From a virus (Duplodnaviria; Caudoviricetes), in the IMG/VR virus record IMGVR_UViG_3300026299_000009, positions 1 to 34,593 of that record: a stretch of DNA of 34,593 nucleotides, one strand, 5' to 3'. The translations under genes and the position numbers were made by a program. Below the pieces are notes generated by a model. It did not search any database, had not been told where the DNA came from, and saw only the letters and a program-made list of their open reading frames with translations. Shown piece after piece: positions 17,352 through 34,593 of the stretch. Positions within the stretch are counted from its first letter, which is position 1. Every line of letters begins with the position of its first letter.

Positions 17352-17614
17352 GGTTCGGCCTCCCGGCGTCTCCGGCGCGGGCGGCGTTGGCATTGCTCCG
17401 GGGCGAGGAGAACGGTGGTCACGTTCAGACCCCCTTCCTCGCAGAGACTGCCCCGCACCACGAAGATGACGCCATCCATGAGGATCTGCCGCTCACCGGC
17501 CTCAACGGCTTCTGCCAGCCGACCGGCGATGGCCGCGCGAAGCTCCTCGATCCGGAACCCGCCTGCACGTTCAAGATAGCGCAGGACCGCATGGTCGGAG
17601 ACACGCAGGTTCAT
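17348..17614 (-). CDS. hypothetical protein (VSDHAVLRYLER family)
   Basis: 88 aa, ATGA overlaps with both neighbours. Confidence 0.75.
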   Translation of the reverse strand: MNLRVSDHAVLRYLERAGGFRIEELRAAIAGRLAEAVEAGERQILMDGVIFVVRGSLCEEGGLNVTTVLLAPEQCQRRPRRRRREAEP

Positions 17615-18060: not shown

Positions 18061-18061
18061 G

Positions 18062-18724: not shown

Positions 18725-18789
18725 GTCAGTTCCTTTCGGGATCGGCGCCGGAGAACCGGCTGAAGAACAGGGGGATCGGTGTCAGCGGA

Positions 18790-19179
18790 TCATTCGGCCT
18801 CCTCATCCGGCGCCCCTTGCGTGCGGAGGTAGCGGGGGCAGCGATGACAGGCGCGATACATGCGGCCGCGCAGCGGATTGCCGATCACGAAAGACCGGGC
18901 CTTCTGCCGCCAGTCCTGACAGACCTGCAGCCCCATATCGCCGAGCGACGGGCAAAGAATGGTCTGATGCTGGAACACGCCGCGCACCCGTTCCTCGATC
19001 GCATCATATTCGGCCGGGTATTTCCGGTTCAGAACCTGGCTGACCACGGTCGCGCTGCGCCCGAGGGCGCGTGCCACCTTTGCCTGGCTGGATCTGGCGC
19101 AGGCCACGGCCAGCACCTCGACCCAGTCGGGAAGCGCGTCACCCCAGGCATCCCGGGCGGCTTGCAGGGGGCCGCTCAT
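18790..19179 (-). CDS. HTH protein with Cys-rich C-terminus
   Basis: SQAKVARALGRSATVVSQVL HTH; CPSLG..C..CHRCP. Confidence 0.82.
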   Translation of the reverse strand: MSGPLQAARDAWGDALPDWVEVLAVACARSSQAKVARALGRSATVVSQVLNRKYPAEYDAIEERVRGVFQHQTILCPSLGDMGLQVCQDWRQKARSFVIGNPLRGRMYRACHRCPRYLRTQGAPDEEAE

Positions 19180-19754
19180 TGCTCACCCCCCATCTGGCCA
19201 ATCCCCGCGACATAGGCATAGGCCGCATCGTTGGGATCCCAGACCGCCGCCACCCGCTTTTCGCGCGGTGCGCGCGGCCCGCTGTTGCGCACCAGCTGAT
19301 AGGTCGCCTCACGCTGGCCCGGAATGGCGGTGCGCAGCACGACCAGATAGCCCGCGCGCAACAGGGCCTGACAATAGCTGCTGGCTTCCCTGTCATCGAC
19401 CCGCAGATCCGCCCGGCAATGGGCAGCCAGATCGGTGGGCGAGAATTTCTTCAGCCCCCGCGCCCCGGTCCAGAGCTGGGCACAGACCTGCGACGTCCGA
19501 TCCTGCGGTTCGCGGTGTTCCGGCGCAACCTCGAAGAGCTTGCGGCTATGCCCCTGCCCGCCCTGACGATGCTGCACCCGCCCCTCCGCCTGCCAGCGGG
19601 AGACCAGATCCGTCGCCACCTTGTGCGAGACGGACATTTCGGAGGCGATCTCCGAATAGCCGAAGATTTCCAGCCGCCGCGCCACCTGCCATGCCTGGGC
19701 TTCGATCTTCGGAAGCTGTTTCGCCGTAGCAATCTTGAGAACCCTGACCGCCAT
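19176..19754 (-). CDS. conserved early protein with tandem winged-helix-like domains
   Basis: 192 aa; YCQALLRAGYL, YQLVRNSGPRAP, VWDPN typical of the gene after B in such phages. Confidence 0.8.
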   Translation of the reverse strand: MAVRVLKIATAKQLPKIEAQAWQVARRLEIFGYSEIASEMSVSHKVATDLVSRWQAEGRVQHRQGGQGHSRKLFEVAPEHREPQDRTSQVCAQLWTGARGLKKFSPTDLAAHCRADLRVDDREASSYCQALLRAGYLVVLRTAIPGQREATYQLVRNSGPRAPREKRVAAVWDPNDAAYAYVAGIGQMGGEQ

Positions 19755-19756
19755 GA

Positions 19757-20557
19757 TTACCCCCTGATTGCCCGCAGGGCCGCCTGCTGTTGCCGCGCCC
19801 GCTCCATCGCCTCGATCTGGCGGGGCACCGGCGCATCCCCGTTATGGAAGGGACGGTTTCCCCATTCCTTCAGGCCAACCCGCTGCAGGCCCTTGGTCAG
19901 CGCCAGCTGCTTGATTTCGGAAAGGTTGGAGCTGACGCGGCGCAGGGACCGCTTGGATCCGGCCAGCACCGCCACCGCCAGCGGCTCCTCGACCTCGATC
20001 CCCCGCGCATAGATCCGGGCCAGCTGCATGACATCGGCCAGCTCGGCCGGTTCGGCCGCCACCCATGTCAGCATCCGGCCGTGAACCCGCTCCCACCGTT
20101 GCAGCTTGGTCGGCAGATCCTCTTCGCCGATCAGGATGATCGGCACATTCGAAGCCTCGTAGAGCCCGCGCACTACCTCTACCATGTCATCGCGGATCAG
20201 CCGGTCGGCCTCGTCGATCAGCAGCGGCCGCTGGGTCCGGGTCAGGCCCTCGGCGACATGTTCGTAGATATCGGCGGCACTCGCACTCTTGCGCAGCATG
20301 AGGCCCAGCTGGTTTGCCACCCCGGTCAGGAGTTGCTTGGACCGCCAGAGCGGCTGGACCTCGACATGCAGGGCGCCGAATTCATTCTGGGTATAGATCG
20401 CGGCCGAGCTTTTGCCCCAGCCGCTCGGGCCATAGAAGGTCGCCATGCCGGGCAGGCCATCGTCACGCGTAAGCACGCGGTCCACCAGCCCCAGCAGGGC
20501 CGAAACATTGCGCAGCGGGGCGACGCTGGTGTCCATGTTGATGCTGTTGCTACTCAT
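19757..20557 (-). CDS. transposition ATPase B (MuB-like)
   Basis: Walker A GPSGWGKS, Walker B LLIDEAD; directly downstream of transposase. Confidence 0.93.
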   Translation of the reverse strand: MSSNSINMDTSVAPLRNVSALLGLVDRVLTRDDGLPGMATFYGPSGWGKSSAAIYTQNEFGALHVEVQPLWRSKQLLTGVANQLGLMLRKSASAADIYEHVAEGLTRTQRPLLIDEADRLIRDDMVEVVRGLYEASNVPIILIGEEDLPTKLQRWERVHGRMLTWVAAEPAELADVMQLARIYARGIEVEEPLAVAVLAGSKRSLRRVSSNLSEIKQLALTKGLQRVGLKEWGNRPFHNGDAPVPRQIEAMERARQQQAALRAIRG

Positions 20558-20566
20558 GTTCTCCTC

Positions 20567-22684
20567 TCAACCGAAGATTTCGTCGCCGTGATTGTCGTGA
20601 AGACGACGTTCGGTGCGGTATTCCGATGTGGTCTGATATCCGGCGAGCCAGCGGCGCTGATCACTGGTCAGCGTGGCGCCGGTTTCGGCCGCGCGCTCCA
20701 GCTCCAGCGCGCGGCGGAACCGTTCGCGGGCCGTCTCGGCCGCCTCGGGGACGGGCCGCAGCGGCAGGGTTGTCACCGAGGCCGGGGTGGTTTCGGCGGC
20801 AGGCGCATCCACAGGCCGCCCGCGCCGGGTTGCCTTGACCGGGGCGAGCCGCACCACCTTTGCCTCCGGCTTCGGCGGTTCGACGGGGCTGACCTCGTCC
20901 AGCATCCGGCCCAGTTCCCGCGCGGTAAACCGGCGGTGCGCCTTCGCGGCCTCCCGCTCTGCCTTCAGCCAGTCGCGCTTCGCACGGGCCAACAGCTTGG
21001 CTTCCTCGGTGTCGAAAAAACCGGCGCGATCAAAGGTCGGCGCATGACCCAGATAGATATTGTCATGGGTATAGACGTGCAGGCCCGACCAGAGATCGGC
21101 GGAATCGAAGCGGATCACCACCGCCTGCCCCGCGATCTCCGGCATCCAGTCGGCCCAGTATTTGTTGCCCATGAAGCTCAGCTGGCCATTGCGGCTGTTG
21201 GCCCGGATGCCCTTTGCCCCCATCAGCCAGAGCCGCCGCTGCGCCTCCGTCGCGCGTCGGATCGGCGCCTGGGCATAGCTCTCGTCGAAAACATCGACGA
21301 AGGACCGGCCATAGGCTACTTCGGAACGCCGCCCGACCCGGGTGTTATGCTCTTCGATGCCTTCGGCCAGAACCCGCAGGAACTCCTCCAGATCAATCGC
21401 GCGGCTGCCGTAATCCTCGGGCTTTGCATCGGGGCGGTTGCCCGTCCAGGCACCATCAAAGCGGGGATCCTTGGCGATATTGTCGCACATGTCGCGGAAC
21501 GCCCGCTCGATCGGCTTTGACTGCCCACTATAAGGAGTGGCCCAGTGGATCTGGCAGCCAAGCGCGGTGAAGAGCCCGGGGACATCCTCATCCGTCATGC
21601 TGAAGCGATAGCGGTTCGGGGTGCCGCCGCTGATCGCCTTGGCGGCAAATTCGCGGCCGTTGTCCAGAAGCACATGTTCGGGGATGCCCCAGTCCTCGAT
21701 CATCTCCCCCGCTGCCAGCAGCACCGTATTGCTGTTGGCGGTCTGATCCACCCGCCACGAGAGGATGCGGCCGGAATAGATGTCCTGAAACGCCACCATC
21801 TGCGGCCGCCCGACATAGGGCGGATCGCTCTGCCCGCGCTCGACCGGCCAGCGCACGAAGACGTCGAACTTGTGATAATCGCCGTTCACCGCCTCCAGCG
21901 CCTGCAGGCAGGTCTTGTCCCTGACCTGCGTCGGATACATCCGTTTCACGGCATCCAGCCCCTCGCGGCACAGCGTCTGGGTCACCCTGCTGATCGTCGC
22001 ATTCAGATGACGACGCATCCGCCATTCCGGCAGCACCTCGAAGCCCCGCTTCTTCGCCACCCGCAGCTGGCGCCGGTAGCAGCTTGAAAAGCTCGGCCCC
22101 GAGGACCGCAGGAAATCGCTCTTGATCAGTTCGAAGAAATCCGGCGCAACCTCCGATCTTGCCCCCCGGGGGGAGGTTTCGACGCGGTGCCGATCCGCGA
22201 GATAGGGCAGACGGTCATCGGGCCGCACGCCTTCGACCAGCGAGAGCCAGCCCCAGATCGTGCGCACGCCCTTGCCTTCGGCCGCCGCGACCTGCCGGAT
22301 CGCCTGATCCCGGCCAAGCACCGGCTCCAGCGCCTCGACCGCCTGGATCACCAGAAGTTTCGCACGCGCCTTGCCCTGCACCGCCTCGGGCAGCCGTTCG
22401 AACCATGCCCATGCGGTATCGCGCTCCGGGCGCTCGGCCCCTGCCCTGCCCTCTGGCGCAACCTCGGCCAGCAGGCGCCGTTGCGCCCGCGCGGGCAGCA
22501 ACCGCCAGCAATATTCCCAGCCCCCGCCACGACCTGAGCGACGGCGGGCGTGATGCGGATGCGCGCGCCAGTGCTGGCGCTCGGCCATGGCATCGACACC
22601 CTGCCGCGTGTCCGGAACATCCGGCAGGCCGCTGGCCGCCAGTTCCGTTGTGGTCCACCATTCCTGTTTCGGGGTCAGCGTCAT
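20567..22684 (-). CDS. DDE transposase A (MuA-like)
   Basis: N-terminal Mu HTH (EWWTTTELAASGLP, GRGGGWEY), catalytic NGDYH / LDNGREF / SKPIERAF, Mu C-terminal domain. Confidence 0.96.
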   Translation of the reverse strand: MTLTPKQEWWTTTELAASGLPDVPDTRQGVDAMAERQHWRAHPHHARRRSGRGGGWEYCWRLLPARAQRRLLAEVAPEGRAGAERPERDTAWAWFERLPEAVQGKARAKLLVIQAVEALEPVLGRDQAIRQVAAAEGKGVRTIWGWLSLVEGVRPDDRLPYLADRHRVETSPRGARSEVAPDFFELIKSDFLRSSGPSFSSCYRRQLRVAKKRGFEVLPEWRMRRHLNATISRVTQTLCREGLDAVKRMYPTQVRDKTCLQALEAVNGDYHKFDVFVRWPVERGQSDPPYVGRPQMVAFQDIYSGRILSWRVDQTANSNTVLLAAGEMIEDWGIPEHVLLDNGREFAAKAISGGTPNRYRFSMTDEDVPGLFTALGCQIHWATPYSGQSKPIERAFRDMCDNIAKDPRFDGAWTGNRPDAKPEDYGSRAIDLEEFLRVLAEGIEEHNTRVGRRSEVAYGRSFVDVFDESYAQAPIRRATEAQRRLWLMGAKGIRANSRNGQLSFMGNKYWADWMPEIAGQAVVIRFDSADLWSGLHVYTHDNIYLGHAPTFDRAGFFDTEEAKLLARAKRDWLKAEREAAKAHRRFTARELGRMLDEVSPVEPPKPEAKVVRLAPVKATRRGRPVDAPAAETTPASVTTLPLRPVPEAAETARERFRRALELERAAETGATLTSDQRRWLAGYQTTSEYRTERRLHDNHGDEIFG

Positions 22685-23583
22685 GCCTGCCCCTCCCGAC
22701 CGCGCGCCCGGAACGGCACGATCTCCGCCGCCTCGCCCCCGTCGCCGGGGCTGGTCTGCGCGGTCATCAGGGGCGAAAGGTCGGCAAAGACATCCTCGAC
22801 AAACCGGCGCCGCGCCGCGAGCCGTGCGCGCGACCAGGCGTTCAGAAGCGCCTTGAATTCTTCGTCAACGGGGTCTTTTACGATGGGCTGAAGACCGGAT
22901 CTGAGGCTGCGCATGGCCTCGGCTGCCGATTTCGCGGCCCCTTCGGACAGCAGGCGCACCACATCATAGCGATCCGTCGGCTGGCTGATCTTCGCGATCT
23001 CGGTCAGGTCTTTCAGGCTGACCTGACGCGGGGCCGCGCGCAGACTGGCCACTTCGTCGGGGCCAAGTCGGGAACCGGCGGCGACGATCTTCTGCACCTG
23101 ACGCATGGTCATGTTGAACTTTTCGGCGGTCGCGGCAGCAAACGAACTAAGTTCGCTTGCTAAACCCTGACGCGCCAAACCACCGGCCACACCCTGCCTG
23201 GTTTCCGGGTGCAGCCGCTCGTAGACCGCCTTGCGGGTGGCCAGAAACACCGCCGTATCAAGGGCGTTCATTTCGGCACCGGCAAGGTTGTCGTCAATCT
23301 CGATCAGCCGCGCCCAGTCGTCGGTCACGTCCGTCCAGATCTTCGCCTCGATCTCGTCCCAGCCCAGACGCCGGGCGGCTTCGGTGCGATGGGCGCCTGC
23401 CAGCAGGTGCAGGCTGCCATCCTTCTTCTTGCGCAGATGAATGGCGTCCTTCATCACCCCGGTCTCGCTGATCGAGGCGATCAGGCTGTCAACGCCCGCT
23501 GCGCTGACCGGGCGCAGGCGGGAACCGATCACGATATCGGCGATCCGCACCCGGTTCTGCTGCATCAAGGTCGGTGGTTTCAC
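22681..23583 (-). CDS. ParB N-terminal domain protein
   Basis: RLRPV, LLAGAHRTEA, EIDDNL motifs plus central HTH; stop overlaps transposase start. Confidence 0.88.
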   Translation of the reverse strand: MKPPTLMQQNRVRIADIVIGSRLRPVSAAGVDSLIASISETGVMKDAIHLRKKKDGSLHLLAGAHRTEAARRLGWDEIEAKIWTDVTDDWARLIEIDDNLAGAEMNALDTAVFLATRKAVYERLHPETRQGVAGGLARQGLASELSSFAAATAEKFNMTMRQVQKIVAAGSRLGPDEVASLRAAPRQVSLKDLTEIAKISQPTDRYDVVRLLSEGAAKSAAEAMRSLRSGLQPIVKDPVDEEFKALLNAWSRARLAARRRFVEDVFADLSPLMTAQTSPGDGGEAAEIVPFRARGREGQA

Positions 23584-23607
23584 GGTTTGGCCCCTTGGTC
23601 TTCGCCG

Positions 23608-23931
23608 TCACGACGCCGCGCGACGGATCTTCGCTATCGAATTGGTCGGAATGCTCAGCGAGGCGGCATCGCCCCGGCTGCGGCAATGCGCGCACAGCCG
23701 GTTGTGGATGCCTTCGCTGTCGAAGTTTCGCCCGCAGCACATGCAGGGGCGCGGCCCGCGTTTGGCATGTCGGTCGGCCTCGGCCTGCATCGCCTGGGCG
23801 GCCTCCACGGCGGCCCGGCGGCTTTCGAACGGCGGCCCGACAAGCTTGCCTTCGGGGCTGATCACCCGGAACCGGCCGCCGATCCGCTCGACGTGGAACC
23901 GCTGTTCGGGGGCGCTGAAGGTGCCAAGCAT
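23608..23931 (-). CDS. hypothetical protein with zinc-ribbon motif
   Basis: RPCMCCGRNFDSEGIHNRLCAHC; GAGG SD. Confidence 0.8.
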   Translation of the reverse strand: MLGTFSAPEQRFHVERIGGRFRVISPEGKLVGPPFESRRAAVEAAQAMQAEADRHAKRGPRPCMCCGRNFDSEGIHNRLCAHCRSRGDAASLSIPTNSIAKIRRAAS

Positions 23932-23935
23932 GGCC

Positions 23936-24166
23936 TCAGCCCCCGTAGCTGGCGGTCAGGAAACCGGCCAGCTCGTCCATCAGCCCGCATTCCTCGGCCG
24001 CCGCGACATGAACCAGCAGGCGGGCAGCAGCCTCGTCATAGACCAGCGCCGCATCCTGCGCGTCGCCCGTCTCACCCGCGAGTTCGGCCCGCGCCATATT
24101 CGCGGCCTCGTCGCGGATCGCCTCCAGCAAGGCACATTTCGACAGGGGTTCGATGTGATCCTTCAC
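23936..24166 (-). CDS. hypothetical early protein
   Basis: 76 aa, GTG start with GGAGG SD overlapping upstream stop. Confidence 0.7.
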   Translation of the reverse strand: MKDHIEPLSKCALLEAIRDEAANMARAELAGETGDAQDAALVYDEAAARLLVHVAAAEECGLMDELAGFLTASYGG

Positions 24167-24492
24167 GGGGTTCCTCCGAAAATGATGATGAACATGGGCA
24201 GCAGGACCGGCGTGCAGACCACCAGCGCCACCAGCGAGGCGATGCCGAGCAGGTCACCGATCCAGCAATCGTTGATGCGCTCGTCCAGCGCGCGCAGGCG
24301 CCGCCAGAGCGACAGGCGCGGCAGATCAGGCTCGATATCCGCAAACCGTTGTGGATGTTTCTTGGTGTCGGGTTCCGCATGCTGACGGTGACGAGGGGTC
24401 CATCCCAAACCCCCCGCCACCTGAGCCCCTGTGCTCACCAACAACACAAGGACTGTTCGCATGACGACCCGAACTCCGGTGGCCGCATTCAT
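24163..24492 (-). CDS. hypothetical membrane protein
   Basis: GGAGGGG SD, hydrophobic N- and C-terminal segments. Confidence 0.6.
   Translation of the reverse strand: MNAATGVRVVMRTVLVLLVSTGAQVAGGLGWTPRHRQHAEPDTKKHPQRFADIEPDLPRLSLWRRLRALDERINDCWIGDLLGIASLVALVVCTPVLLPMFIIIFGGTP
24337..24383 (+). promoter_or_regulatory. third copy of late-activator site, reverse orientation
   Basis: ATCCGCA-AACCGT-TGTGGATGTTT (one mismatch to the 16908 copy over this stretch), CATGCT at 24378-24383. Confidence 0.65.
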
Positions 24493-24735
24493 CGCCACCC
24501 CTCCCGGAACACGAACGGATTTTCAGCGCGGCACACCCCGATCCTGCCGGACTGCCTTACCAGCCGGATCGGGGCGGCCTTCGCCGCGGCAGGGGCCAAC
24601 CGACCCCGGCGAAACCCAAGGGTGCCTGCGCTGTCGGACAGGCGGCACATCAAATTCTGGCGGTGCCGACGAGTGTAACCAGCACTCGCCGGCACCTTCA
24701 TCCAAGACCTCAAGGACAGATCAAGGACGATCCGA

Positions 24736-25158
24736 ATGAAACGCACACGGCGGCTCTCAGCCTCAGAAGCAATCGACTGCATTTGCAGACGCGAACTGGG
24801 CCTTCCACTCAAACGATGCAGCACAGGGAACGCAGACCTGACGGCAGTGCTCTCCGCACTGGAGGCCCTGCGCGATGCGACCACCAATCCTCTGGAAACA
24901 TCGGGTGACTGGATTGGAGAGAAGGAAGAAAACGATGTCGATGACACAATCGCCCGAATGGCCGAGACCGGATCGCTGGACCCCGCGCGGTTTCTCTCAT
25001 CAGAAAGCCGGATAGCTCTGCGTGCGGTGATCGACGTGGCAATGGTCGAATACACGGTCATTCCCGTTGGCCCCCACAAGCTGAGAGGCATTCCCGATAG
25101 ACTGCAAGGTTATGCCCTGGGATTAGCCGCAGTCGCGCGGCATGCTCTTCGGGGGTAA
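24736..25158 (+). CDS. hypothetical protein (140 aa), antisense to early operon
   Basis: AAGGA SD 8 nt upstream, protein-like composition; 3' end overlaps convergent ORF. Confidence 0.55.
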   Translation: MKRTRRLSASEAIDCICRRELGLPLKRCSTGNADLTAVLSALEALRDATTNPLETSGDWIGEKEENDVDDTIARMAETGSLDPARFLSSESRIALRAVIDVAMVEYTVIPVGPHKLRGIPDRLQGYALGLAAVARHALRG

Positions 25159-25345
25159 GCCCCGACTCTTCCGCGAACCGGGCCTCGCCCTTGAGGGCGA
25201 GTGCCACCCCCTCGGGGATGATCTTTTGCACCAGCTCGGACGACCCGCAGAGCCTGAACAAAAGCAGACGCAGGCAGCCCTCCTGATCGGCGGCAGACAT
25301 GCTCTGGAAATAGGGAGATGAAACGATGTCGATGAAGTGTTCCAT
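25058..25345 (-). CDS. hypothetical early protein (95 aa)
   Basis: TGATG coupling to upstream gene; MEHFIDIVSSPYFQ. Confidence 0.5.
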   Translation of the reverse strand: MEHFIDIVSSPYFQSMSAADQEGCLRLLLFRLCGSSELVQKIIPEGVALALKGEARFAEESGLTPEEHAARLRLIPGHNLAVYRECLSACGGQRE

Positions 25346-25773
25346 CACGCGGCATCTCTCTGATTGGCTTCGGTGGGGCGTGGAATGTCCGAGGGCCAAG
25401 GCAGAGGATCCGGCCAGATCGACGCAAAGTAGTTCAGCGCCAAGAAGTGGGTAGTGGAATGTGCGCCGACCACCTCGGAGCGGCGAAGACGGATCAGGCA
25501 CGCGATGACACTTGAAGTCACCGCGCCTCTGGATGACCTCCACTCATAGAGGGGACCCGAGTAGACCGGAGCATTCCTTTTGTTCAGGGCGCAGCCCGAA
25601 TAGCAGGTGTACAGCCTGTCTAGGCGGCGCAGGCCTTCAGCGTTGGCGACAGCATTGGTCATGCGCAATTTGCGCGTCGTATCAACTTGGGGGAGCGTTA
25701 ATATTGCGGCCCGCAGGTTCACAAACGCGACCTTCACAGCCGCAATTTCAGCTTGAATTTCGGGGCGAACCAT
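25345..25773 (-). CDS. hypothetical protein with Ner/Cro-like C-terminal motif
   Basis: TGATG coupling, GGAGG SD; C-terminal YFASIWPDPLPWPSDIPRP. Confidence 0.7.
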   Translation of the reverse strand: MVRPEIQAEIAAVKVAFVNLRAAILTLPQVDTTRKLRMTNAVANAEGLRRLDRLYTCYSGCALNKRNAPVYSGPLYEWRSSRGAVTSSVIACLIRLRRSEVVGAHSTTHFLALNYFASIWPDPLPWPSDIPRPTEANQRDAA

Positions 25774-26024
25774 CAGGCGACCCTCCGGTTCGGCCTAGGG
25801 CGCTCAATCCCCGTCGGCCATTCAAGGTCGGTCGGCCAGTGGTCAGAAAACCATTGGCAGACGTTCACCGCAGTCTTGAGAGTGCAACCTTTGCCCTCTG
25901 TTAGACGCTTGAAGAACTGCCCGTCACCCCGAACCAAGTAGGCAATACGCCAATGACTGAGGTTCAGGTGACGTGCGTAGGCATCAGCAAGAGTGATGAG
26001 GTGTTGGTACGGTGCGTTTGTCAT
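25773..26024 (-). CDS. Ner/Cro-like small DNA-binding protein
   Basis: 83 aa, divergent from repressor, first early gene, WFSDHWPTDLEWP motif. Confidence 0.85.
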   Translation of the reverse strand: MTNAPYQHLITLADAYARHLNLSHWRIAYLVRGDGQFFKRLTEGKGCTLKTAVNVCQWFSDHWPTDLEWPTGIERPRPNRRVA

Positions 26025-26030
26025 GCCCCG

Positions 26031-26059
26031 ATTAAGACGAAAAGCTCTTATACAGTCAA
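26031..26059 (-). promoter_or_regulatory. early promoter
   Basis: TTGACT-N17-CTTAAT, 6 nt before the ner ATG. Confidence 0.7.
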
Positions 26060-26102
26060 GATACTTCCGTCTTACCTCGCCGAATCAGATTTATTTATCT
26101 TG
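26033..26102. promoter_or_regulatory. three putative repressor operators, consensus YAAGA-N8-TCTTR
   Basis: 26033-26050, 26057-26074, 26085-26102 (last with imperfect left arm TCAGA). Confidence 0.7.
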
Positions 26103-26124
26103 CCGCGTGTGTTTACTTGCCGGG

Positions 26125-26838
26125 ATGCGAGATAAGTCCGTCAGATCAAAGGAAACGAATGAGCGAGTGAGGGCGCTTGTCGAAGCTGCCCTTGAAGACA
26201 AGGGCATTTCCGCTCGGCAGGCGTCCCTGCAGATTGTTGGCCACGATGGCCTCATTCGTGACATCCGCGCCGGAGGGCTGCCGAGTATCGACAAACTTGA
26301 AGCTCTCTTTGATCTGCTGGGGCTCGAGTTCTACTTTGGGCCACCCAGAGATACGGGGCCGATCGAGACTCTCACACTGGACGGCGCCGACTACGCCCAC
26401 GTCCCCCTGCACGACGCTATGCTTGCGGCGGGGGCTGGCGTTTTCAATGGATCAGAGACAGTCGTGGAAACTCTCGCGTTTCGCCGCGAATGGCTACAAC
26501 GTATCGGTGTGTCCGCCTCAACCGCCCGGCTCGCCCGCGTTCAGGGTGACAGCATGCAACCCAGCCTCTGGCACGGCGACATGATCCTGATCGACACCCG
26601 CACCAATGAGCCGCCGGTGCGTGACCGGGACCAACGCGACCAGCGCCGCTCCCCCATCTATGCCCTGATCGATAACGGCGAGGCCCGCGTGAAGCGGATC
26701 GAACGCCCCTCCCCCGATCAGATGCTGCTGATTTCAGACAATACCGATTACCCGCCCGAGCTGCGGCAGGGCACAGATCTCAAGGCCATCACCATCATCG
26801 GCAAGGTGGCCTGGTGGGGTCACACGAACAAGGACTAG
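26125..26838 (+). CDS. CI-like repressor with S24 autopeptidase domain
   Basis: N-terminal HTH, AAGAG cleavage site, GDSMQP and VKR catalytic motifs; start at 26125 is a best guess. Confidence 0.92.
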   Translation: MRDKSVRSKETNERVRALVEAALEDKGISARQASLQIVGHDGLIRDIRAGGLPSIDKLEALFDLLGLEFYFGPPRDTGPIETLTLDGADYAHVPLHDAMLAAGAGVFNGSETVVETLAFRREWLQRIGVSASTARLARVQGDSMQPSLWHGDMILIDTRTNEPPVRDRDQRDQRRSPIYALIDNGEARVKRIERPSPDQMLLISDNTDYPPELRQGTDLKAITIIGKVAWWGHTNKD

Positions 26839-26840
26839 GC

Positions 26841-27785
26841 ATGGCAGGCAGACGCGGTGCAGATACGCGGCGGCGCTGGGCAATCTATTTGAGTGGCCCG
26901 CTTGCAGCGCTGGCCCTCATGCTTTCGGCGAGCGCAGCAACTGCGGAGGTGATCGTCACGCATGAGCTTTTGGAAAAGCGTGACGACCAGCCGTGCAAGG
27001 TGAAGCTACGAACCGATGCTGGCAAGCGCGTTGGCTTCTACCTGTCACGTGACGAGGAGCGGTGGAAAATTGAAGCAGTAATCCTTGCCAACGCTGAAGT
27101 TTATCGGCGCTTTTTTGATGATCAGCGTCTTAGCGATACATTCCGCTTCACGTTCGCGCTCAAAACTGTGACGATTGGTGGCCAGATCCTGAAGCTTCAG
27201 AATGCGCGCTTCCTCGAAGTCTCACCGTCGGGTGTTCATAAAGAAACGTTGGGGTCTTTTGAATTCAAGGAGCTGCACAATGTTGCCAAGGTGCTGGACG
27301 CCATGGCGAAGGACGGATTTGAAATCGACGGTTTGATCAGGCTGGATACCACAGCTTCCGCGCTCGCAAGCTTTCGTTCATGCGCATATGAGACGATAGG
27401 ATTGCAAGAAGGGCAGCATGTAGAGACTGATTTTCGTGCTGAGTTTCGAATGCTGTTCGAGCACACATTTCGGATATGGATCGTGTTCTTGGCCACTGCA
27501 GAACACTGTCAGGCCGCGCAATTTGATGAGGCCGCAGTGAACAACGTGATCCTAAGGGCCTCCCACGCATTCTACCCTGGCCTGTCGAACTGGCGTAAGC
27601 GCGCCTCCTATCGGGACATGCTGAATCGTGACGTGGCGAAAGCGCAGCTTATCGGCGCCTCAGAAGCTCTGAAAGGGTGCTTCCTTGCGCGGCCGCTGGC
27701 TGAGAAAACCCGCATTCCGGTAGACATGGCGATCGAGGAAGCCGAAGTCTGGAATCGATATCCCTTACGATACTGGCCTCGCTGA
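26841..27785 (+). CDS. hypothetical exported protein (314 aa)
   Basis: AAGGA SD, basic n-region, hydrophobic core and ATA-E signal peptidase site; 2 nt after repressor stop. Confidence 0.75.
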   Translation: MAGRRGADTRRRWAIYLSGPLAALALMLSASAATAEVIVTHELLEKRDDQPCKVKLRTDAGKRVGFYLSRDEERWKIEAVILANAEVYRRFFDDQRLSDTFRFTFALKTVTIGGQILKLQNARFLEVSPSGVHKETLGSFEFKELHNVAKVLDAMAKDGFEIDGLIRLDTTASALASFRSCAYETIGLQEGQHVETDFRAEFRMLFEHTFRIWIVFLATAEHCQAAQFDEAAVNNVILRASHAFYPGLSNWRKRASYRDMLNRDVAKAQLIGASEALKGCFLARPLAEKTRIPVDMAIEEAEVWNRYPLRYWPR

Positions 27786-27883
27786 TCCACCACTCAAAGG
27801 AATGATGCACAACTGCATCGCCTCCCTATTGTTACTGGAGGCTCAGCCAAAGCGCGACAAGTCAATATCTGATCTTCAAGAAT

Positions 27884-27898
27884 GTTCACCTTATGTTC
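27884..27898 (+). promoter_or_regulatory. alphaproteobacterial LexA (SOS) box
   Basis: GTTC-ACCTTAT-GTTC = GTTC-N7-GTTC, 27 nt upstream of methylase ATG. Confidence 0.75.
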
Positions 27899-27925
27899 TG
27901 GATGGTGCACCCAAGGAACATGACG

Positions 27926-28753
27926 ATGAACAGCCCTTTAACTCACGTTGAACCCGTCTCTCCCGCCGCCCCCTGGCTGGGCGGCAAGCGCAATCTGGCC
28001 AAGCGGATCTGCGGGATCATCGACCGCACCGCCTGCACCACCTATGCCGAGCCCTTCGTGGGCATGGGCGGGATCTTCCTGCGCCGCGCGACCCGGCCGC
28101 GCTGCGAGGTGATCAATGACAAGGGCCGCGACATCGCCAACCTGTTCCGCATCCTCCAGCGGCATTACCCACAGTTCCTCGACACCCTGCGGTTCCAGCT
28201 GACCACGCGGACCGAGTTCAACCGGCTGGTCGATACCAACCCCGAAACGCTGACCGACCTCGAGCGCGCAGCGCGATTCCTGTATCTGCAGCGCACCGCC
28301 TTCGGCGGCAAGATTTCCGGCCGGAACTTCGGGGTCGTGACGGACCGGCCGGGCCGGTTCAACCTGACCACGCTGGAGCCGATGCTGGAGGATCTGCACA
28401 GCCGCCTGTCCGGCGTGATCATCGAATGCCTGGACTGGGGCGACTTCATCCCTCGCTACGACCGCGAGGGAACGCTGTTCTACCTCGACCCTCCCTACTG
28501 GGGCTGCGAGGGCGATTACGGCAAGGCGCTGTTCAGCCGCGAGGATTTCGGCCGGATGGCGGAGGTTCTGGCGAGGCTGAAAGGCCGGTTCATCCTCTCG
28601 ATCAACGACGTGCCCGAGACCCGCGAGATATTCGGCCGCTTCCATCTGACCAGCGTGACTACCAGCTACACCATCAGCCGCACCGGCAACGACCAGTCCG
28701 GGGCGCGGGCCGAACTGCTGGTGTCGAATTATCCGATTCCAGCCGTGACATGA
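27926..28753 (+). CDS. DNA adenine methyltransferase (Dam/D12 class), orphan
   Basis: WLGGK, YAEPFVGMG, VIND, FYLDPPY motifs; AAGGA SD. Confidence 0.93.
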   Translation: MNSPLTHVEPVSPAAPWLGGKRNLAKRICGIIDRTACTTYAEPFVGMGGIFLRRATRPRCEVINDKGRDIANLFRILQRHYPQFLDTLRFQLTTRTEFNRLVDTNPETLTDLERAARFLYLQRTAFGGKISGRNFGVVTDRPGRFNLTTLEPMLEDLHSRLSGVIIECLDWGDFIPRYDREGTLFYLDPPYWGCEGDYGKALFSREDFGRMAEVLARLKGRFILSINDVPETREIFGRFHLTSVTTSYTISRTGNDQSGARAELLVSNYPIPAVT

Positions 28754-28944
28754 CGCAAAGCCGATGATTCATTGCCTAAATGGGCGGAAAGCAGACTGAC
28801 GGCATTGCAGCCCAGCAGACGCAGCATTCCTAGGAGAGTCGCCATTTGTACGGATCGCAATGAAAAATCTGCTATATGTCACGGACTAGACGGAAGGCGA
28901 CCCAGCGTTTCGGGAATGTGGTCTCAGATGGCGACCAGATTCAT

Positions 28945-29802
28945 TTAATTCGCACCCAGCAATTGGGCCAGTTTCGATGCCGCATCGGCGGCGGCATTCA
29001 ATGCCCTAGAAATACGATCAGGATTTGCGTGAGCCCACGCGGCAGCACTCACAGGGACGCCCCACTTGATCAAGCTGTCGACCCCGAGATCGAGTTTTCT
29101 CCCTATCCAAGATGTTATCGAGAGCGCCAGCTTCCTGAGTTGCGATGCCTGCGCTTGTATGACCTCTGGCGCAGGATCATCTTCACCGACTTCTGCGCGC
29201 AGTGTCTCGACTGCTTTGCGGACAGTTTCAAAGTCAGCAGGGGATAACGGATCGTCCTCAACAAGACCCGGCGGATTGTTGTGATGCCTCGGCGGCAGTG
29301 CTTCTCGATACAGTTGGACCGTATCCTCGACAAGTGCCAGACAAACGAGGAGTTCATGCTTGGCCGCCGCTATATCATTCACCAATGCTGTTGTAGCTGT
29401 CACCGCGATCAGTGGATTTCCGTTCTCATCTGTAAGAACGCGACCGTCTTCAGTTGTGAGATAGCTTTCCCCGCGTTGAAGCTCCGGAATACTTGGCTCA
29501 TCATCTTCTGAAATGAAGATGTCGGGAAATGGCGCGTCCAAGCTATAAATCCCATCGTCCGGTTCTTGGGAATCGAACGCCCATGCACTGACATCACGGG
29601 TGAGATCTTTAGAATTCACTCCTAGTTGTTCTAGCAGTTCTGGATCGCTATCCGCAGCGAAGCGGACTAGATAGCCGTACACCTCGCCATCATCACCTTC
29701 TATTTCCTCAAGGTTCCAAGAGGCAAGCTCTAAACTCTCGACACTTACACCCCAGTGCTGTGCGATCAATCTTGCTTGCTGCTCGTCATGGTCGAAATCC
29801 AT
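28945..29802 (-). CDS. acidic hypothetical protein (285 aa)
   Basis: long ORF in AT-richer DNA, co-oriented 71 nt after the C5 methylase. Confidence 0.8.
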   Translation of the reverse strand: MDFDHDEQQARLIAQHWGVSVESLELASWNLEEIEGDDGEVYGYLVRFAADSDPELLEQLGVNSKDLTRDVSAWAFDSQEPDDGIYSLDAPFPDIFISEDDEPSIPELQRGESYLTTEDGRVLTDENGNPLIAVTATTALVNDIAAAKHELLVCLALVEDTVQLYREALPPRHHNNPPGLVEDDPLSPADFETVRKAVETLRAEVGEDDPAPEVIQAQASQLRKLALSITSWIGRKLDLGVDSLIKWGVPVSAAAWAHANPDRISRALNAAADAASKLAQLLGAN

Positions 29803-29873
29803 CGGTCATCCAAGAAAATCTCTAGTGAGGCAGATTACGCATTTTAGAGCTGCTGGCGACTGGTATGTGGATC

Positions 29874-30953
29874 CTAACTCTTTGACGGAAGAGCCTCTAC
29901 ATGCGCCCGCAACAGCTTGCCAATGTACTCGCCGAGTGGGACTGGTACCGCATTGCCTATCAGGCGTCCGATCTTAGCGAAGCTCGGCCGTTTCCCAAGA
30001 GGAACAAATGAGTAATCGACGGGAAAGCCTTGGAGCATCGCCGCCTCCCGGAGCGTTATCGCCCGGTCCTGTTCGGGATGCCCGAAGCGACCGTTTCCGT
30101 AGCCGAAGCACTGCGTCGTGATGGTAGGACTCGGTTCATCCCACACCATGCGGCCATATACGGCCGGAAACGTTGCGCCCGTACTCCTGCGGTGACAGGC
30201 AGCCCGTAGCTGCTCCGGCCAGTCGCGCCAAGTGCCCCCCGGCTTCGAAGCCCGAATGCGCTTCATGTTGGTAGCGCTCAACTTGCTAGCCACGTGAAGC
30301 GGGTCGTCGGGGTCGGCTTCCCCCGCAGCAATTCGGCGAAGTGAGCCGATCGTCTGCCTGACGGTGGTCGGTTGACGACCTGATTCGTCTGGTTCCAATG
30401 ATATTGGTCCCAGTTTCGATCCGATCAATACGAGCCGCTTTCTTGTCTGTGGAAGACCGACTTGCCGCACATTGATTACCCTGTAGTCCACGTAGTATCC
30501 GGCGAGTGCAGCTAAGAACTCTTGAAAGACCGGTTGGTCAGCCAAGGGGGGGACGTTCTCCATGGTGACGAGGTCCGGCTGCACCGCGTGTACCAACTCC
30601 CCGAATCGTCGTACAAGTCGCCAGTCGTCCTGCTTACCTCGGCCCTTGCGAGTCCCGTCCCCTTGCCGTACGGCGGAGCGCGAATAGGTCGAAAACGGCT
30701 GGCACGGCGCACACCCGGCCATCAACGTCACTTCTCCGCCAGCCATGGCCTTCGCGACCTCGGCAGCGTCAAGACTGTCGACGTCGGCCCTGAGAAACTT
30801 GGCCGCATTGTTGGCAGCGAAAGGATGTTCACATGCTGGGTCAATATCGACGCCGAGGCGCACATTGATGCCTGCGCGCTCCAAACCATGCGTAAGCCCC
30901 CCCGCTCCGCAAAAAAGGTCAACCGCAGCTATTGTCTTAACATTAGTCGTCAT
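29874..30953 (-). CDS. DNA (cytosine-5) methyltransferase
   Basis: DLFCGAGG, APCQPFS, ENVP, PQTRKR, LREAAMLQGFP, IGNAVP motifs. Confidence 0.95.
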   Translation of the reverse strand: MTTNVKTIAAVDLFCGAGGLTHGLERAGINVRLGVDIDPACEHPFAANNAAKFLRADVDSLDAAEVAKAMAGGEVTLMAGCAPCQPFSTYSRSAVRQGDGTRKGRGKQDDWRLVRRFGELVHAVQPDLVTMENVPPLADQPVFQEFLAALAGYYVDYRVINVRQVGLPQTRKRLVLIGSKLGPISLEPDESGRQPTTVRQTIGSLRRIAAGEADPDDPLHVASKLSATNMKRIRASKPGGTWRDWPEQLRAACHRRSTGATFPAVYGRMVWDEPSPTITTQCFGYGNGRFGHPEQDRAITLREAAMLQGFPVDYSFVPLGKRPSFAKIGRLIGNAVPVPLGEYIGKLLRAHVEALPSKS

Positions 30954-31663
30954 GGCGCCGTCTGTTGAAGGAAGCTTCTTCCATCTATATATAGATCGAA
31001 AGACGCGACGACTTCCTTCATATAGGCAATCACAGGATCGCGCAACTCGGCAAGGCGGCTACTGGGGATGTGACGCGCACCGTCCAAGAAGGACTCGTTC
31101 CCGTGCGCCAGCCGGTTGCGCTTGTGCCGAAGGTACTTCATCGGGGGCATATGGTCCTCAAACATGTTTTCACATGCGGCGATGCGGACCGGGTCACTGA
31201 TAGCGAGAGGGCAGGCCAAAGCGGTCGCGAGTTCGACCACTTCTTCGTGCGACCAGTTCCCTGTCTTGCGGCGGATGCTCAACTTCGACAGGGCGGCCCG
31301 GTCGATTGCCTCTTGCACCAAGCCGACGAAACGGGTCTCGGCGTCATGGACCGACAGGTCTCGCGACAGGTTCACGCGTCCCAGCGCCCATTCGCGCAGT
31401 AGTCCGTCGCACCATTCCTTGGGTGAGTGGACGGCCGCAGCTATTGCCACCTCCTCCAGAACCTTCGCCATCACAGCCTCGACAACGTTGTAGAGGTGGA
31501 CAAGGAAGCCACTCTTGAGAATGTTGATCGGCTCGGAGTCTACGGGTGCCGTGTGGGTGCCGGTCCCACGACCAACGGCAGAAGCCTCCAGCTCCGTTAT
31601 GAACTGCAGATGAGTCTCAATTTCAACCATCCTCTCCGAAAGGATTACGCCAAATTCGCTCAC
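30950..31663 (-). CDS. HEPN-domain protein (MAE_28990/MAE_18760-like)
   Basis: ILKSGFLVHLYNVVE and RNRLAHG (RxxxxH) motifs. Confidence 0.88.
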   Translation of the reverse strand: MSEFGVILSERMVEIETHLQFITELEASAVGRGTGTHTAPVDSEPINILKSGFLVHLYNVVEAVMAKVLEEVAIAAAVHSPKEWCDGLLREWALGRVNLSRDLSVHDAETRFVGLVQEAIDRAALSKLSIRRKTGNWSHEEVVELATALACPLAISDPVRIAACENMFEDHMPPMKYLRHKRNRLAHGNESFLDGARHIPSSRLAELRDPVIAYMKEVVASFDLYIDGRSFLQQTAP

Positions 31664-32766
31664 TGCATGAGCCTCTCATAAACAAAACGAATCCTTGCGA
31701 GGAGCTTGGACTTTACATTTGCGGCGTCAGAAGTCGTGACGTCCCCAAATTCCCTCTCATCTACCCATCCAGCAACGTCTGCGGGCAACGTAGTCAGCTG
31801 ACCTCGGTCTCTCAATGCCAACGCGGTACCCACCGCAATTGCCTCGAAGCGAACCCGCGGTATCTGCTTTCCGGTAGCCGTTTTTCGGAAGCCAAACGGG
31901 AAAAGGCGGTCGACCTCGACCAGCATGGCATCGAACTCCCGCCGAAGGCGTGTTAGATATCCGGGGTCATTCCCTGCTAGGCCATTGGCCTCATCTACGA
32001 AGGCCCAAATGTACTCTCGGGGGCGATCCCTCCATCCGGGAAGATCAAAGATCCCATTTTCGCGGGTGAGCTTTTCCAAGTATGTGAAGAAGCGAACGAC
32101 GAGTTCCTCGCGCTCCCTCTCGTTAACCAGATTTGTCGAGACTGGTGTCATGCTGACGAAGCGCTGATCCGTCGAACAGCTCACCACCAGATCCATGAAC
32201 GGGCCAGGCAGGGAGCCTCTCCGGATCTCCGCCTCGTTCAGGTGTGTTCCACCGGTATTGATACGATTGAACATCTCTGTTCGAGCGGCCTCATTAACAA
32301 GGTTATCAAGTATGATGCCGCGGATGGATCGGCTGGAGAGCTTTCTTTGTCGGCTCCTATCTAAGTCAGTGACGCGGAAACCATTCAGTTCGGGTAGCTG
32401 TTGCAGCTTTTGAAGCTGTAAGTCACCGTCGAGAAAACGCACCATTGTTCGGAGCCGCTGCGACCCGTCCACAATTTCAAGTCGACCGTCATCCGCCTGC
32501 CAAAGGAATAAGAAAGGAATTGGAAGCCCCATTAGCAAAGACTCAACAAACCTTGACTGCTTGTCCTCGGGCCAAACCAACTCCCGCTGATATGGAGGAA
32601 CGTAATACTCCTCTTGGCGGACCTTCTCCGCCAAGAATTCAACTGTATACTCGGTGACTAAGTATTTGATAGCCATTTCCAACTTGGCGATCGCCGCTTC
32701 GCCTGCGACTTTCTGCAATTCAGTCGGAGCTATGCGCCTACTTGCCCGCGCCATGCCATCCACCAT
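31660..32766 (-). CDS. DUF262 (GmrSD N-terminal, ParB/Srx fold) protein
   Basis: VPPYQRELVW, IVDGSQRL, FNRINTGG motifs. Confidence 0.92.
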   Translation of the reverse strand: MVDGMARASRRIAPTELQKVAGEAAIAKLEMAIKYLVTEYTVEFLAEKVRQEEYYVPPYQRELVWPEDKQSRFVESLLMGLPIPFLFLWQADDGRLEIVDGSQRLRTMVRFLDGDLQLQKLQQLPELNGFRVTDLDRSRQRKLSSRSIRGIILDNLVNEAARTEMFNRINTGGTHLNEAEIRRGSLPGPFMDLVVSCSTDQRFVSMTPVSTNLVNEREREELVVRFFTYLEKLTRENGIFDLPGWRDRPREYIWAFVDEANGLAGNDPGYLTRLRREFDAMLVEVDRLFPFGFRKTATGKQIPRVRFEAIAVGTALALRDRGQLTTLPADVAGWVDEREFGDVTTSDAANVKSKLLARIRFVYERLMQ

Positions 32767-33550
32767 CGGTCACTTCAATTGGAAATAGGTATCACGGTTA
32801 GCTGGCATGTTGGCAAGCGTGAAGTCAGTAGCACTAGAGGCTCAAGGGACCCCTGAACCTTTCTTACGCATCGCGCCGCCCGGTTTGGCGACCGAAACGC
32901 GCCATTTCGCGCAGGCGCGTGTGGCCAAGCGATCGGTCTCGGCGATGTGGCTACCCTTGTGCTTGCCGTAGGCGAAGGTCAGCACCAGAGGCACCGCTAG
33001 AAGCCTGCTCGCTCACGCCAATATCCGATCATTTGGTTCTTGGCAGACAGGAGCGGCTCGATCAAGCTGCAGCGATGACACACACACTTCACCTCACTTC
33101 GGCATCCGACGGAAAAGTTATTGGAGGCAGAGTATTTCCTCGACAGGTCAATGCGCGTGGACCGATCTCACTTTCAATATGGCTGAATGCGATCTTGACA
33201 GCGCCGCACTGTCGTCAGACGGGCTTTCCTCCCGGCAGATCGATCTCGTGGCGGTACTTGGTTCGCAGAACACAGATGCAGCGGACGGCAGCTTTATCCT
33301 GCATCGCTATCATCGCGGCCTGAACTTTGCTGCGGTGCGAGACAAGTGTCGGCTTCGAGGGATGCGGCCTCGCAGCATTGGCCTAGGCCGAGCAGCGGCT
33401 AAGGGCCGCTTGCGAACGAGGCCAGAGGTCAGCCCTCCGCACACGCTCCGGACAGGTATGCGCAGACATGTGGAGTGGCTCACACCAACGAGCCAACCAC
33501 CTAAGAAATTGGCTACTGCCGTACAGCGGATCCATAGATCAGCAGCTTTT

Positions 33551-33769
33551 CTAAGATTTGCGCAGGCCCGAGGGGGGCGTTCCAGGAGTTCCGCCGAGAA
33601 CCAACAACGCGATGATGGCAACGAATGGTGTCAGCAACAACGCGACAATGACCCAGGCAACGGGCGACCGGCCGCGCTCGGTCGCCATGGACGCCGGTAC
33701 GAAAAAGTAGAGCCAAACATTAAAGATCAGCAGCAGGACCACGATTATACCGCCTGCAAAGCTGTTCAT
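33551..33769 (-). CDS. small two-TM membrane protein
   Basis: 72 aa, GGGAGG SD, two hydrophobic helices flanking MATERGRS. Confidence 0.75.
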   Translation of the reverse strand: MNSFAGGIIVVLLLIFNVWLYFFVPASMATERGRSPVAWVIVALLLTPFVAIIALLVLGGTPGTPPSGLRKS

Positions 33770-33907
33770 GCGGTCTCACCTCCCCTTCGCCTGGATGAAA
33801 GCCCTAGCGCCTGTCACTGGATGCCTTCAAGTGTTTCCGCGCGCCAAGATGCTAACCGGCTGCTTGATCCGTTGAGGCGCCTCCCACTCAGCCAACATTG
33901 CGAAAAA

Positions 33908-34027
33908 TCAGTTGCATGTTCGGGGCGAGGCCTAGCGCAGCCCGGCAGGTCAGCTCGACACAAAATCAAAGACTTAACCGAACATGCAACTGACGACGGA
34001 AACTTGCGGGCCGATTTGCATGTTCGG
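33908..34027. repeat. subterminal repeats with IHF consensus site
   Basis: TCAGTTGCATGTTCGG 33908-33923 and its exact inverse 33978-33993; TTGCATGTTCGG 34016-34027; AATCAA-AGAC-TTA 33964-33976. Confidence 0.75.
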
Positions 34028-34255
34028 ATGGCCAGTTCGGTCGCGATTTCCAGCCGCCAAAGGCTCAAGATGGCAATTTCTCGTCATGAAAACGGGCACT
34101 TAAACGGTCCCTTCTCCGCCGGGCAAAACGCCCGTTTCGGAGATCTAACATAAAGGGGCTTACGCGCTTGCGTTCATAGTTTCCCCGACAGGCAAGCAGC
34201 CGGAGCGAGATCTAAACCTCATAAAACTACCTTGAACCAATGACTTACCAAAGCA

Positions 34256-34280
34256 TCCCACTCCTTCCCGACTGTTCCCA
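34256..34280. repeat. three TCCC(A/G) repeats at 10-bp period, candidate pac site
   Basis: 34256, 34266, 34276; 31-55 bp from the left terminus. Confidence 0.55.
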
Positions 34281-34286
34281 CCTTTG

Positions 34287-34310
34287 TGCAGTTTTCTGTG
34301 TCAACTCACA
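34287..34310 (-). repeat. phage left end (attL)
   Basis: reads inward TGTGAGTTGACACAGAAAACTGCA; imperfect inverted repeat of the right end. Confidence 0.8.
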
Positions 34311-34315
34311 ATGTG

Positions 34316-34389
34316 TGTAGCGTGACGGCAAAAGCTGCAGAGTTTTACAGCAAATCCTGCAGCAGAACGATTTTTTGCCTCTGCCGTCA
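34316..34389 (+). repeat. phage right end (attR) with R1/R2/R3-like transposase sites
   Basis: TGTAGCGTGACGGCAAAAGCTGCAG; second copy TTACAGCAAATCCTGCAG 22 bp further; inverted TGACGGCA at 34382-34389. Confidence 0.8.
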
Positions 34390-34423
34390 AAGGGCGCTGC
34401 AAAGCCCCGGTTAACGCCAGCCC

Positions 34424-34593
34424 TCAAATCGCCAGGCCTGCCATCGCCGCGCCGACCTCCTCAAGTGTCGTCGCGGCGTCGATTGCGGCGCGGGTGGTGA
34501 GGCGGAGGGCCTCCAGATCGGCGGCGGTGCTGCGCCAGAGGGTGGCGAGGTTGAGCCAGATCTGGGCGAGGCTGGCGCCATCGGGGGCGGTGA
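34424..34593 (-). CDS. 3' end of a probable tail-fibre-associated protein (partial; absent from ORF track)
   Basis: TAPDGASLAQIWLNLATLWRSTAADLEALRLTTRAAIDAATTLEEVGAAMAGLAI-stop; IDAATTLEEV resembles tail fibre assembly/DUF4376-like ends; phage-like GC. Confidence 0.65.
   Translation of the reverse strand, partial: TAPDGASLAQIWLNLATLWRSTAADLEALRLTTRAAIDAATTLEEVGAAMAGLAI

Follow-up and report, generated by a model that had tools for sequence, protein, structure and literature searches.

A Mu-like prophage is joined at its left end, across exactly five base pairs, to a right end that most likely belongs to a second, related prophage in the DNA stretch analysed here. This stretch (the window), 34,593 bases long, makes up an entire virus record. 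Two different right ends, each preceded by the same 5-mer, were found in the sequencing data: one follows the left end of the phage, the other follows the promoter region of nrdR, and each is present at about chromosomal depth. The junction is likely to be the inner seam of a chromosomal tandem, in which the Mu-like prophage of the window has inserted exactly at the 5 bp next to a resident relative's right end, on the upstream side of nrdR, and has duplicated these 5 bp. It is very likely that both seams bound one prophage across about 40 kb. The simplest layout runs from nrdR through scars and 5 bp to prophage 1 (the body of the window), and from there through 5 bp to prophage 2.

Phage genome and joined ends

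The genes of the window were called by scanning its 50 ORFs against PHROGs and Pfam (Table 1). They describe a Mu-like siphophage with a MuA-type transposase, a MuB-type ATPase, a ParB-like gene, a repressor and GemA, along with head genes of the Mu type and a portion of the tail genes. The conserved Mu-type set is represented by GemA, the late activator, gp27/terminase, portal, F, protease I and gp36, and the phage belongs to the Mu-like phages by every testable structural trait. The distal tail genes of prophage 1 and its own right end are missing from the window. The transposase matches PF02914 with an E value of 2.6e-45 and three more Mu domains; its closest deposited relatives in a tblastn search are those of ThpS-P1, RhkS_P1 and PeaS-P1, with about 50% identity. 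The pair formed by the ParB-like gene and the transposase gene is also present in these three phages. The product of the gene adjacent to the transposase gene matches phrog_296 with an E value of 5.6e-50. Its comparison with PDB sequences matched no MuB chain and returned one weak clamp-loader match. The helix-turn-helix matches of the 192-aa and 129-aa proteins are weak and lie under the curated cut-offs, and among the Atlas look-alikes of these proteins an IclR/TrmB/MarR-type helix-turn-helix is found in a minority of members.

Table 1. Features of the window, with positions, strands and the basis of each assignment
Feature	Position	Strand	Basis
Prophage 1 body, roseobacter (ThpS-P1/RhkS_P1) type, from the interior of the tape-measure gene to the left end	1..34310	-	PHROGs/Pfam, tblastn
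Two small helix-turn-helix-like proteins (192 aa, 129 aa), directly downstream of MuB; candidate targeting factors	18790..19754	-	phrog_2030, phrog_2119
MuB-type AAA+ transposition protein, 266 aa	19757..20557	-	phrog_296; AAA_22, TniB
MuA-type DDE transposase, 705 aa, open	20567..22684	-	PF02914, PF09039, PF09299, PF02316; phrog_310
ParB-like protein, directly upstream of the transposase gene; candidate targeting factor	22681..23583	-	PHROGs/Pfam
CI-like repressor	25993..26838	+	phrog_4, Peptidase_S24
Left-end cargo: adenine methylase, cytosine methylase, HEPN, GmrSD-type	27893..33769	.	PHROGs/Pfam, run contigs
Left end of prophage 1, TG terminus read inward, terminal transposase-site-like motif	34287..34310	-	letters; G012 homologue then 5-bp duplication
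5-bp spacer, inner copy of the target-site duplication	34311..34315	.	run contigs, L136, L139
Right end of prophage 2, probably a related resident element (from depth and 9 differences to the nrdR-side right end)	34316..34593	+	
Two direct transposase-site-like repeats, 22 bp apart, 14/18 alike	34323..34362 (34323-34340, 34345-34362)	+	
Third repeat, inverted, weak (12/18), at background match level	34372..34389	-	
Last gene of prophage 2, 3′ end only (55 open codons and the stop at 34424-34426)	34424..34593	-	

The left end of the phage carries a cargo of about 6 kb, with a GmrSD-type (DUF262) gene, a HEPN gene and a cytosine methylase gene at 29874-32766 (-) and an adenine methylase gene at 27893-28753 (+). 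Judged by its gene content, this cargo is possibly an anti-phage or restriction module. A relative in Gemmobacter caeni carries a BPTD_3080-family restriction gene at the equivalent left-end position. The stretch from about 28590 to 34340 is one unbranched single-copy contig in sequencing runs X1 and X2. A 10-mer occurs three times at 33912-34025, 290-400 bp inside the left end (two direct copies and one inverted), and parts of these repeats recur in contigs of another element in X1, X3 and X4. An AAA_21/AbiEii-like ATPase gene at 7401-9008 (+) is low in GC (about 50%) and opposed to the orientation of the surrounding head gene cluster. A 27-nt near-palindrome is present twice, at 16903-16929 and 24337-24363, with 93% complementarity; one copy lies just downstream of the late-activator gene and the other in the early region. 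It is possibly a regulator site or a terminator.

The sequence-only reading of this DNA had described phage ends joined head-to-tail across exactly 5 bp, and the letters bear this out: the left end stops at 34310, ATGTG follows and the right end begins at 34316. The motif TGT-N4-TGAC-N4-AAA-N-CTGCA, as described, is common to both ends, and these are its only two occurrences in the window. TG...CA termini with repeated transposase-like sites are found, the sites being putative. The repeated sites noticed in the right part are indeed present as the two direct copies and the weak inverted copy of Table 1; the spacing of the direct copies presumably resembles that of R1 and R2 of Mu. The right part had further been said to hold the 3′ end of a tail-type gene. 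The end of an open frame is there, while its tail identity, plausible from the position, is unconfirmed by Pfam, in which the 55 codons had no match. In X1 the last gene (34446-34593) has about 5.5 times the depth of the left-end contig, and a diverged paralogue is present. This suggests that the host carries several related prophages or a tail cassette.

Compared as inverted sequences, the two arms agree at 15 of 24 letters. As a proof of phage ends this likeness was rejected, since the window contains 598 pairs of arms, with spacers of 0-30, that are at least as alike. The arms are regarded as true phage ends because of their position beyond the repressor/cargo block in a genome of the Mu type, because the homologous ends of relatives are bounded by matching 5-bp duplications, and because letters are shared with ThpS-P1 and PeaS-P1: the first 11 letters of the right end also stand near the start of both of these records.

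Sequencing depth and the nrdR seam

Runs X1, X2 and X3 hold nearly all of the end of the window and may be its own source; the depths given here were taken from Logan contigs and are a coarse measure. The contigs of X4 do not cover the junction. In X1, X2 and X3 the left-end contig crosses the seam unbranched and stops at 34340, so that it includes the spacer and the first 25 right-end letters. The contig that follows in X1 and X2 has the first base of the spacer as its own first base, and its depth is about 1.85 times that of the left end. This implies a second right end with the same five flanking bases and a different sixth base. A prophage of Gemmobacter caeni has almost the same ends as the window and has its right end upstream of nrdR, and for this reason the runs were checked at nrdR. 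In all four runs concerned (X1, X2, X3 and X5), a single contig contains the right terminus, the same five letters and the nrdR upstream region up to the gene start, with depths of 39.1x, 26.9x, 14.4x and 5.6x, respectively. The copy of ATGTG beside a chromosomal right end, for which the sequence-only reading had proposed to look, is found at this joint. In X1 the depths of the left junction, the nrdR junction and the shared right end are 41.3, 39.1 and 76.8, the first two giving a sum of 80.4; in X2 they are 31.3, 26.9 and 56.6, with a sum of 58.2. The ratio of right-end to left-end depth is 1.86 in X1 and 1.81 in X2, and no branch to the host was seen after the left end and its 5 bp. The host ribD-region contig in X1 has a depth of 40.5x. 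In X5 the nrdR-side contig enters the right end unbranched; the pattern of the tandem is seen in X1-X3 and not in X5.

The inner and the outer right ends differ at 9 of 283 letters. Three of these substitutions are found at matching positions in the contigs of X3, and the contigs of X1 and X2 merge both variants. The right part of the junction had been read as the window phage's own end; it most likely belongs to a second, closely related prophage, and not to an unrelated element. The 5-mer at the inner seam is the same as that at the outer nrdR seam, as expected of a 5-bp target duplication; a given 5-mer would match by chance about once in 1000. The outer seam has been assembled twice in metagenomes (L136 and L139), and in a second assembly (L121) the junction is identical to that of the window over 652 bp. 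L131 is the window's own record and was left out as independent evidence. Among the Logan contigs and assemblies examined, none runs from nrdR through prophage 1 to the inner seam. The host may be Gemmobacter-like, as its nrdR upstream region is 93.5% identical to the G. lutimaris locus.

Three origins had been proposed for the junction, and of these the insertion of one element beside a resident end despite target immunity is supported by the shared 5-mer at the outer nrdR junction, by a left junction present at about one copy per chromosome and by the differences between the inner and outer right ends. An excised or plasmid-like circle of the window's phage, which arose by copy-out or precise excision, keeps one target copy and exists beside a chromosomal copy or a relative, is highly improbable. 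The contig is phage-only and phage-sized, and the short contigs formally allow a one-copy circle beside a different chromosomal element with the same flank. However, the record is linear and has no terminal repeat in a sequence check, and a circle accompanied by its own prophage predicts that both ends have equal depth and that the contig branches once the left end and its 5 bp are passed, whereas the observed depths are 1 : 1.8-1.9 without a branch. The joined ends of a circle should also equal those of the chromosomal copy, from which they differ at the nine letters mentioned. In those relatives where such seams have been assembled, different prophages stand in tandem. The ParB-like gene, which might be taken to favour a plasmid-like state, is present in integrated relatives too. 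A false join or circularisation made by the assembler has a negligible probability. The contig ends in a multi-copy gene, and the Logan contigs extend only 25 letters into the right end; against this, another assembler produced the same join in three runs, the second assembly has it too, its spacer equals the outer nrdR flank, and isolate genomes show the same architecture.

Stacked prophages, end stubs and host sites in relatives

A 19-base right-end pattern matched at 19 loci of the viral contigs, 22 of the species genomes and 32 of the metagenomes. In the viral contigs, 16 of the 19 loci have an inverted left end exactly five bases upstream, and these represent three distinct seams. Among the nine distinct inner seams, the window's included, the spacer is 5 bp in seven and 8 and 30 in the others. 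In Roseovarius sp. 217 (G016) one scaffold contains, in this order, host DNA, GCGTG, a 41.6-kb prophage, GCGTG and a second right end. G003 contains two transposases, and its two seams, which share one 5-mer, are separated by 44.7 kb. In G007, ThpS-P1 is joined over 5 bp (junction at 30638-30644) to a prophage related to it by 90-96%; this cultured and inducible phage stands in tandem with a related prophage. The GenBank record of ThpS-P1 opens with 61 bases of flank (L002 1-61), which include an end stub. Matching 5-bp flanks at the ends are found in G016, G012, G421 and G427. In L081 a left end is apparently joined to the remainder of a right end, so that the seam lies inside an end. Seams of this kind are under-counted, since the search pattern requires an intact right terminus. 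The left-end pattern matched in only 6 of 23 genomes, and most arrays are therefore not closed at the left side.

The exact junction pattern was found among the viral contigs only in G001. The 30-nt spacer of this mosaic record was considered as an artefact; this was rejected and the spacer taken as real, as the Gemmobacter caeni genome has the same spacer with a matching outer 5-mer, although the two records may not be independent. Within positions 1-20000 the IMG/VR record G001 joins a seemingly unrelated phage, host genes and Mu-like remnants, so that the record is not one virus. In the G. caeni relative (G012:C8:237611-238696; G001 36895-38511) an internal deletion fuses MuA residues 1-204 in frame to the rest of the terminase, giving a 538-aa ORF; this relative is a decaying prophage. 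A family-wide pattern search matched 7 of 401 genomes, several of them probably by chance. From this search only L076 entered the counts; L080 repeats L041. Six loci from a transposase-based search for related loci were left out of the counts. The same end type with matching 5-bp flanks is present in a bin labelled Castellaniella (L050 / L085 in G427). Castellaniella lies outside the Alphaproteobacteria. These ends may reflect a wider host range or mis-binning.

Short remnants of right ends accompany the intact ones. A right-end prefix of at least 6 nt lies within 45 nt upstream, in the same orientation, at 12 of 26 ends, compared with 0.7% of 53,034 control windows, and a reverse-complement control gave none in 26. 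The 26 ends comprise the 22 genome loci together with L076, L002, L029 and L091 and are not independent. Up to five stubs of the same orientation stand at one site. The stubs are what an insertion just inside a resident right end leaves behind, and the matching flanks fit this reading in G012, G016 and G418 and in L125/L122. The commonest long stub has 11 letters (10 cases), and the target that it implies fits the consensus NYSRN given in the available text of PMC12486242. The window spacer fits two of the three positions of this consensus. The outer flank of the window parses as stubs of 11, 14, 4, 2 and 2 letters, the short ones being ambiguous, and the spacer itself may be built from old ends.

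In the species genomes, 14 of the 20 host-flanked right ends are found at one of five promoter regions that recur, and the host gene there points away from the phage. Five are upstream of the proC-csaA operon (165-174 bases to the nearest start codon), three upstream of an acyl-CoA dehydrogenase gene (99-103 bases), two upstream of nrdR-ribD (206-207 bases), two upstream of lexA (103-107 bases) and two upstream of mraZ. The other six are at unique sites, one of them within a GTA-type gene. Among 15 nrdR loci from the genus of G012, four have a right end. Genes for transcription regulators, namely lexA, mraZ and nrdR, follow three of the five recurring sites (L036, L048, L049, L051, L039 and L052). 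By eye, no host motif common to all five sites was found; the motifs seen at individual sites are presumably DnaA-box-like, LexA-box-like and MraZ-box-like.

The distance from a host anchor to the phage end was compared between loci of the same site. Of the 11 loci at the acyl-CoA dehydrogenase site, 10 have a distance of 32-36 nt, with stubs of 11-28 nt (permutation p 0.004), and the remaining one has 46 nt. At nrdR it is 43-45 in four loci and 31-34 in two (permutation p 0.013, 6 loci). These p values are too favourable because the loci share ancestry and decayed stubs may be misassigned. The test at mraZ was not significant (p 0.15, 5 loci); L133, in which the anchor is missing, was left out. 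At the lexA site the distance is 49 nt in one genome and 50 nt in another, and the sequences between anchor and end are unlike in the two. The proC-operon site has a near-constant distance, with stubs parsed in only three of five loci.

Possible origin of the stacking and comparison with known systems

Taken from the genomic record, it is somewhat probable that MuA/MuB-type integration in the roseobacter group is host-anchored, has one orientation and over-rides the cis-immunity of Mu. We propose that integration would be directed to a zone of a few tens of base pairs at a set distance upstream of certain host promoters, in one orientation. The 5-mer of the previous insertion would keep its distance from the promoter. 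Since this last-used 5-mer would still be at the set distance, it would be the commonest target for the next phage, and seams of left end, 5 bp and right end would result. Insertions slightly further in would cut off a short piece of the earlier right end, which would persist as a stub next to the host DNA. Speculatively, recombination between neighbours might lead to the loss of the inner seams and to one hybrid prophage with accumulated stubs. No TniQ/TnsD-like gene was found among the 50 ORFs of the window or the 9 rescanned at E 0.1, the distal tail region lying outside the window. The ParB-like gene and the two helix-turn-helix-like genes beside MuA and MuB are candidates only for the directing factor.

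The targeting step could be different, with the tandem otherwise formed as proposed. A newcomer might be drawn to the resident right end itself, where an end-bound transposase would capture the incoming transpososome. This is possible but rather unlikely. It would account for stubs at several unrelated loci, for the re-use of the 5 bp touching the right end in seven of the nine inner seams and for the left end joined to the remainder of an end in L081, but it leaves first insertions at the same five promoter regions across species and genera unexplained. It also predicts that the distance from the host grows with each stub. The anchoring by the host is favoured because this distance is near-constant while stub length varies, and the two lexA-site ends hold their distance despite the unlike sequence between anchor and end. 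It is considerably less probable that insertion is near-random, as in Mu, and that the recurrence at promoters and beside prophages reflects only the survival of harmless insertions. Six of the 20 ends are indeed at unique sites, and target immunity is slightly leaky in the Pseudomonas phage Ab30, for which the available part of PMC5977238 gives 0.4% of insertions into its own genome. Selection alone, however, would tolerate thousands of intergenic positions and both orientations, and it can give neither the exact re-use of one 5-mer in seven of nine seams nor up to five same-orientation stubs at one site. In addition, new lysogens of the Citromicrobium phage phiA integrate in a 40-bp zone (PMC12486242, as far as its accessible text goes).

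The window phage resembles Mu, as portrayed in the accessible portion of PMC7350765, in the DDE transposase followed by an AAA+ partner, the Mu-type head genes, the TG termini with internal repeated sites and the 5-bp duplications. According to the same source, early transposition of Mu spares the 1.5 kb or so next to its ends, and insertions are depleted out to about 5 kb. In contrast to the near-random integration and cis-immunity of Mu, the second element here directly adjoins the first, at a distance of 0 bp, and the same few host promoters are found repeatedly; the comparison is not like for like, as the immunity data for Mu, in the part of the source available, concern a replicating prophage and not the superinfection of a repressed lysogen. 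Judged by the recurrent sites, seams and stubs of the genomic record, near-random integration with cis-immunity next to resident ends, a trait of Mu proper, was not found. The Citromicrobium phages phiA and phiB are likewise alphaproteobacterial and Mu-like, with 5-bp duplications and strongly biased integration, phiA into the 40-bp zone (n = 24) and phiB into six hotspots (n = 20) (PMC12486242). The zone of phiA differs in that it lies in a hypothetical gene and not upstream of a promoter. The word "tandem" does not occur in the main text of that paper, and its accessible parts describe neither end stubs nor a targeting mechanism. The closest cultured relatives, vB_ThpS-P1, vB_PeaS-P1 and vB_RhkS_P1, share the gene order ParB-MuA-MuB with the window phage; the portion of the paper on ThpS-P1 and PeaS-P1 that was available (PMC5488378) mentions neither ends nor duplications nor a tandem partner. 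The proposed mode would work like that of Tn7-like elements, such as Tn6022 at comM, which insert at a set distance from a host gene with a 5-bp duplication and whose immunity is sometimes overwhelmed, in natural genomes, by internal or proximal insertions (PMC11014353, available part). These elements differ as cut-and-paste transposons that require TnsD/TniQ-type proteins, and they use a precise single site instead of a zone with several sites. In the accessible text of PMC8682789, the authors of Prophage Tracer state that Mu-like prophages yield no fixed excision junction. A literature search over titles and the openings of abstracts, with most subscription journals and the classic Mu papers outside its reach, found no paper that describes tandem arrays of Mu-like phages with shared duplications or end stubs. 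Narrow-zone integration in Citromicrobium Mu-like phages is already published in the accessible literature; for stacking and scars no paper was found there.

Tentatively, the seams, stubs and sites can be combined into the picture of a roseobacter group of Mu-like phages whose integration is independent of TniQ, anchored to promoters, fixed in orientation and indifferent to immunity. Superinfecting phages would land on or just inside the tip of the resident right end, the resulting tandem arrays would recombine into hybrids, and the nested end stubs would be a readable ledger, kept at each site, of one infection after another.

In textbooks, Mu stands for random insertion combined with self-avoidance. 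The phages described here would provide a natural Mu-type system with the opposite behaviour, of which an inducible cultured member, ThpS-P1, already stands in such an array. Two questions thereby become testable: by what means a MuA/MuB machine can acquire a site preference in the absence of a TniQ/TnsD protein, and whether a relative that superinfects a repressed lysogen encounters cis-immunity at all. Seams of left end, 5 bp and right end in Mu-like contigs are not to be taken for circles or complete genomes. A Mu-type integrator with a narrow target zone could serve as an insertion tool for Rhodobacteraceae, and the stubs at a locus give a lower bound on the number of past infections.
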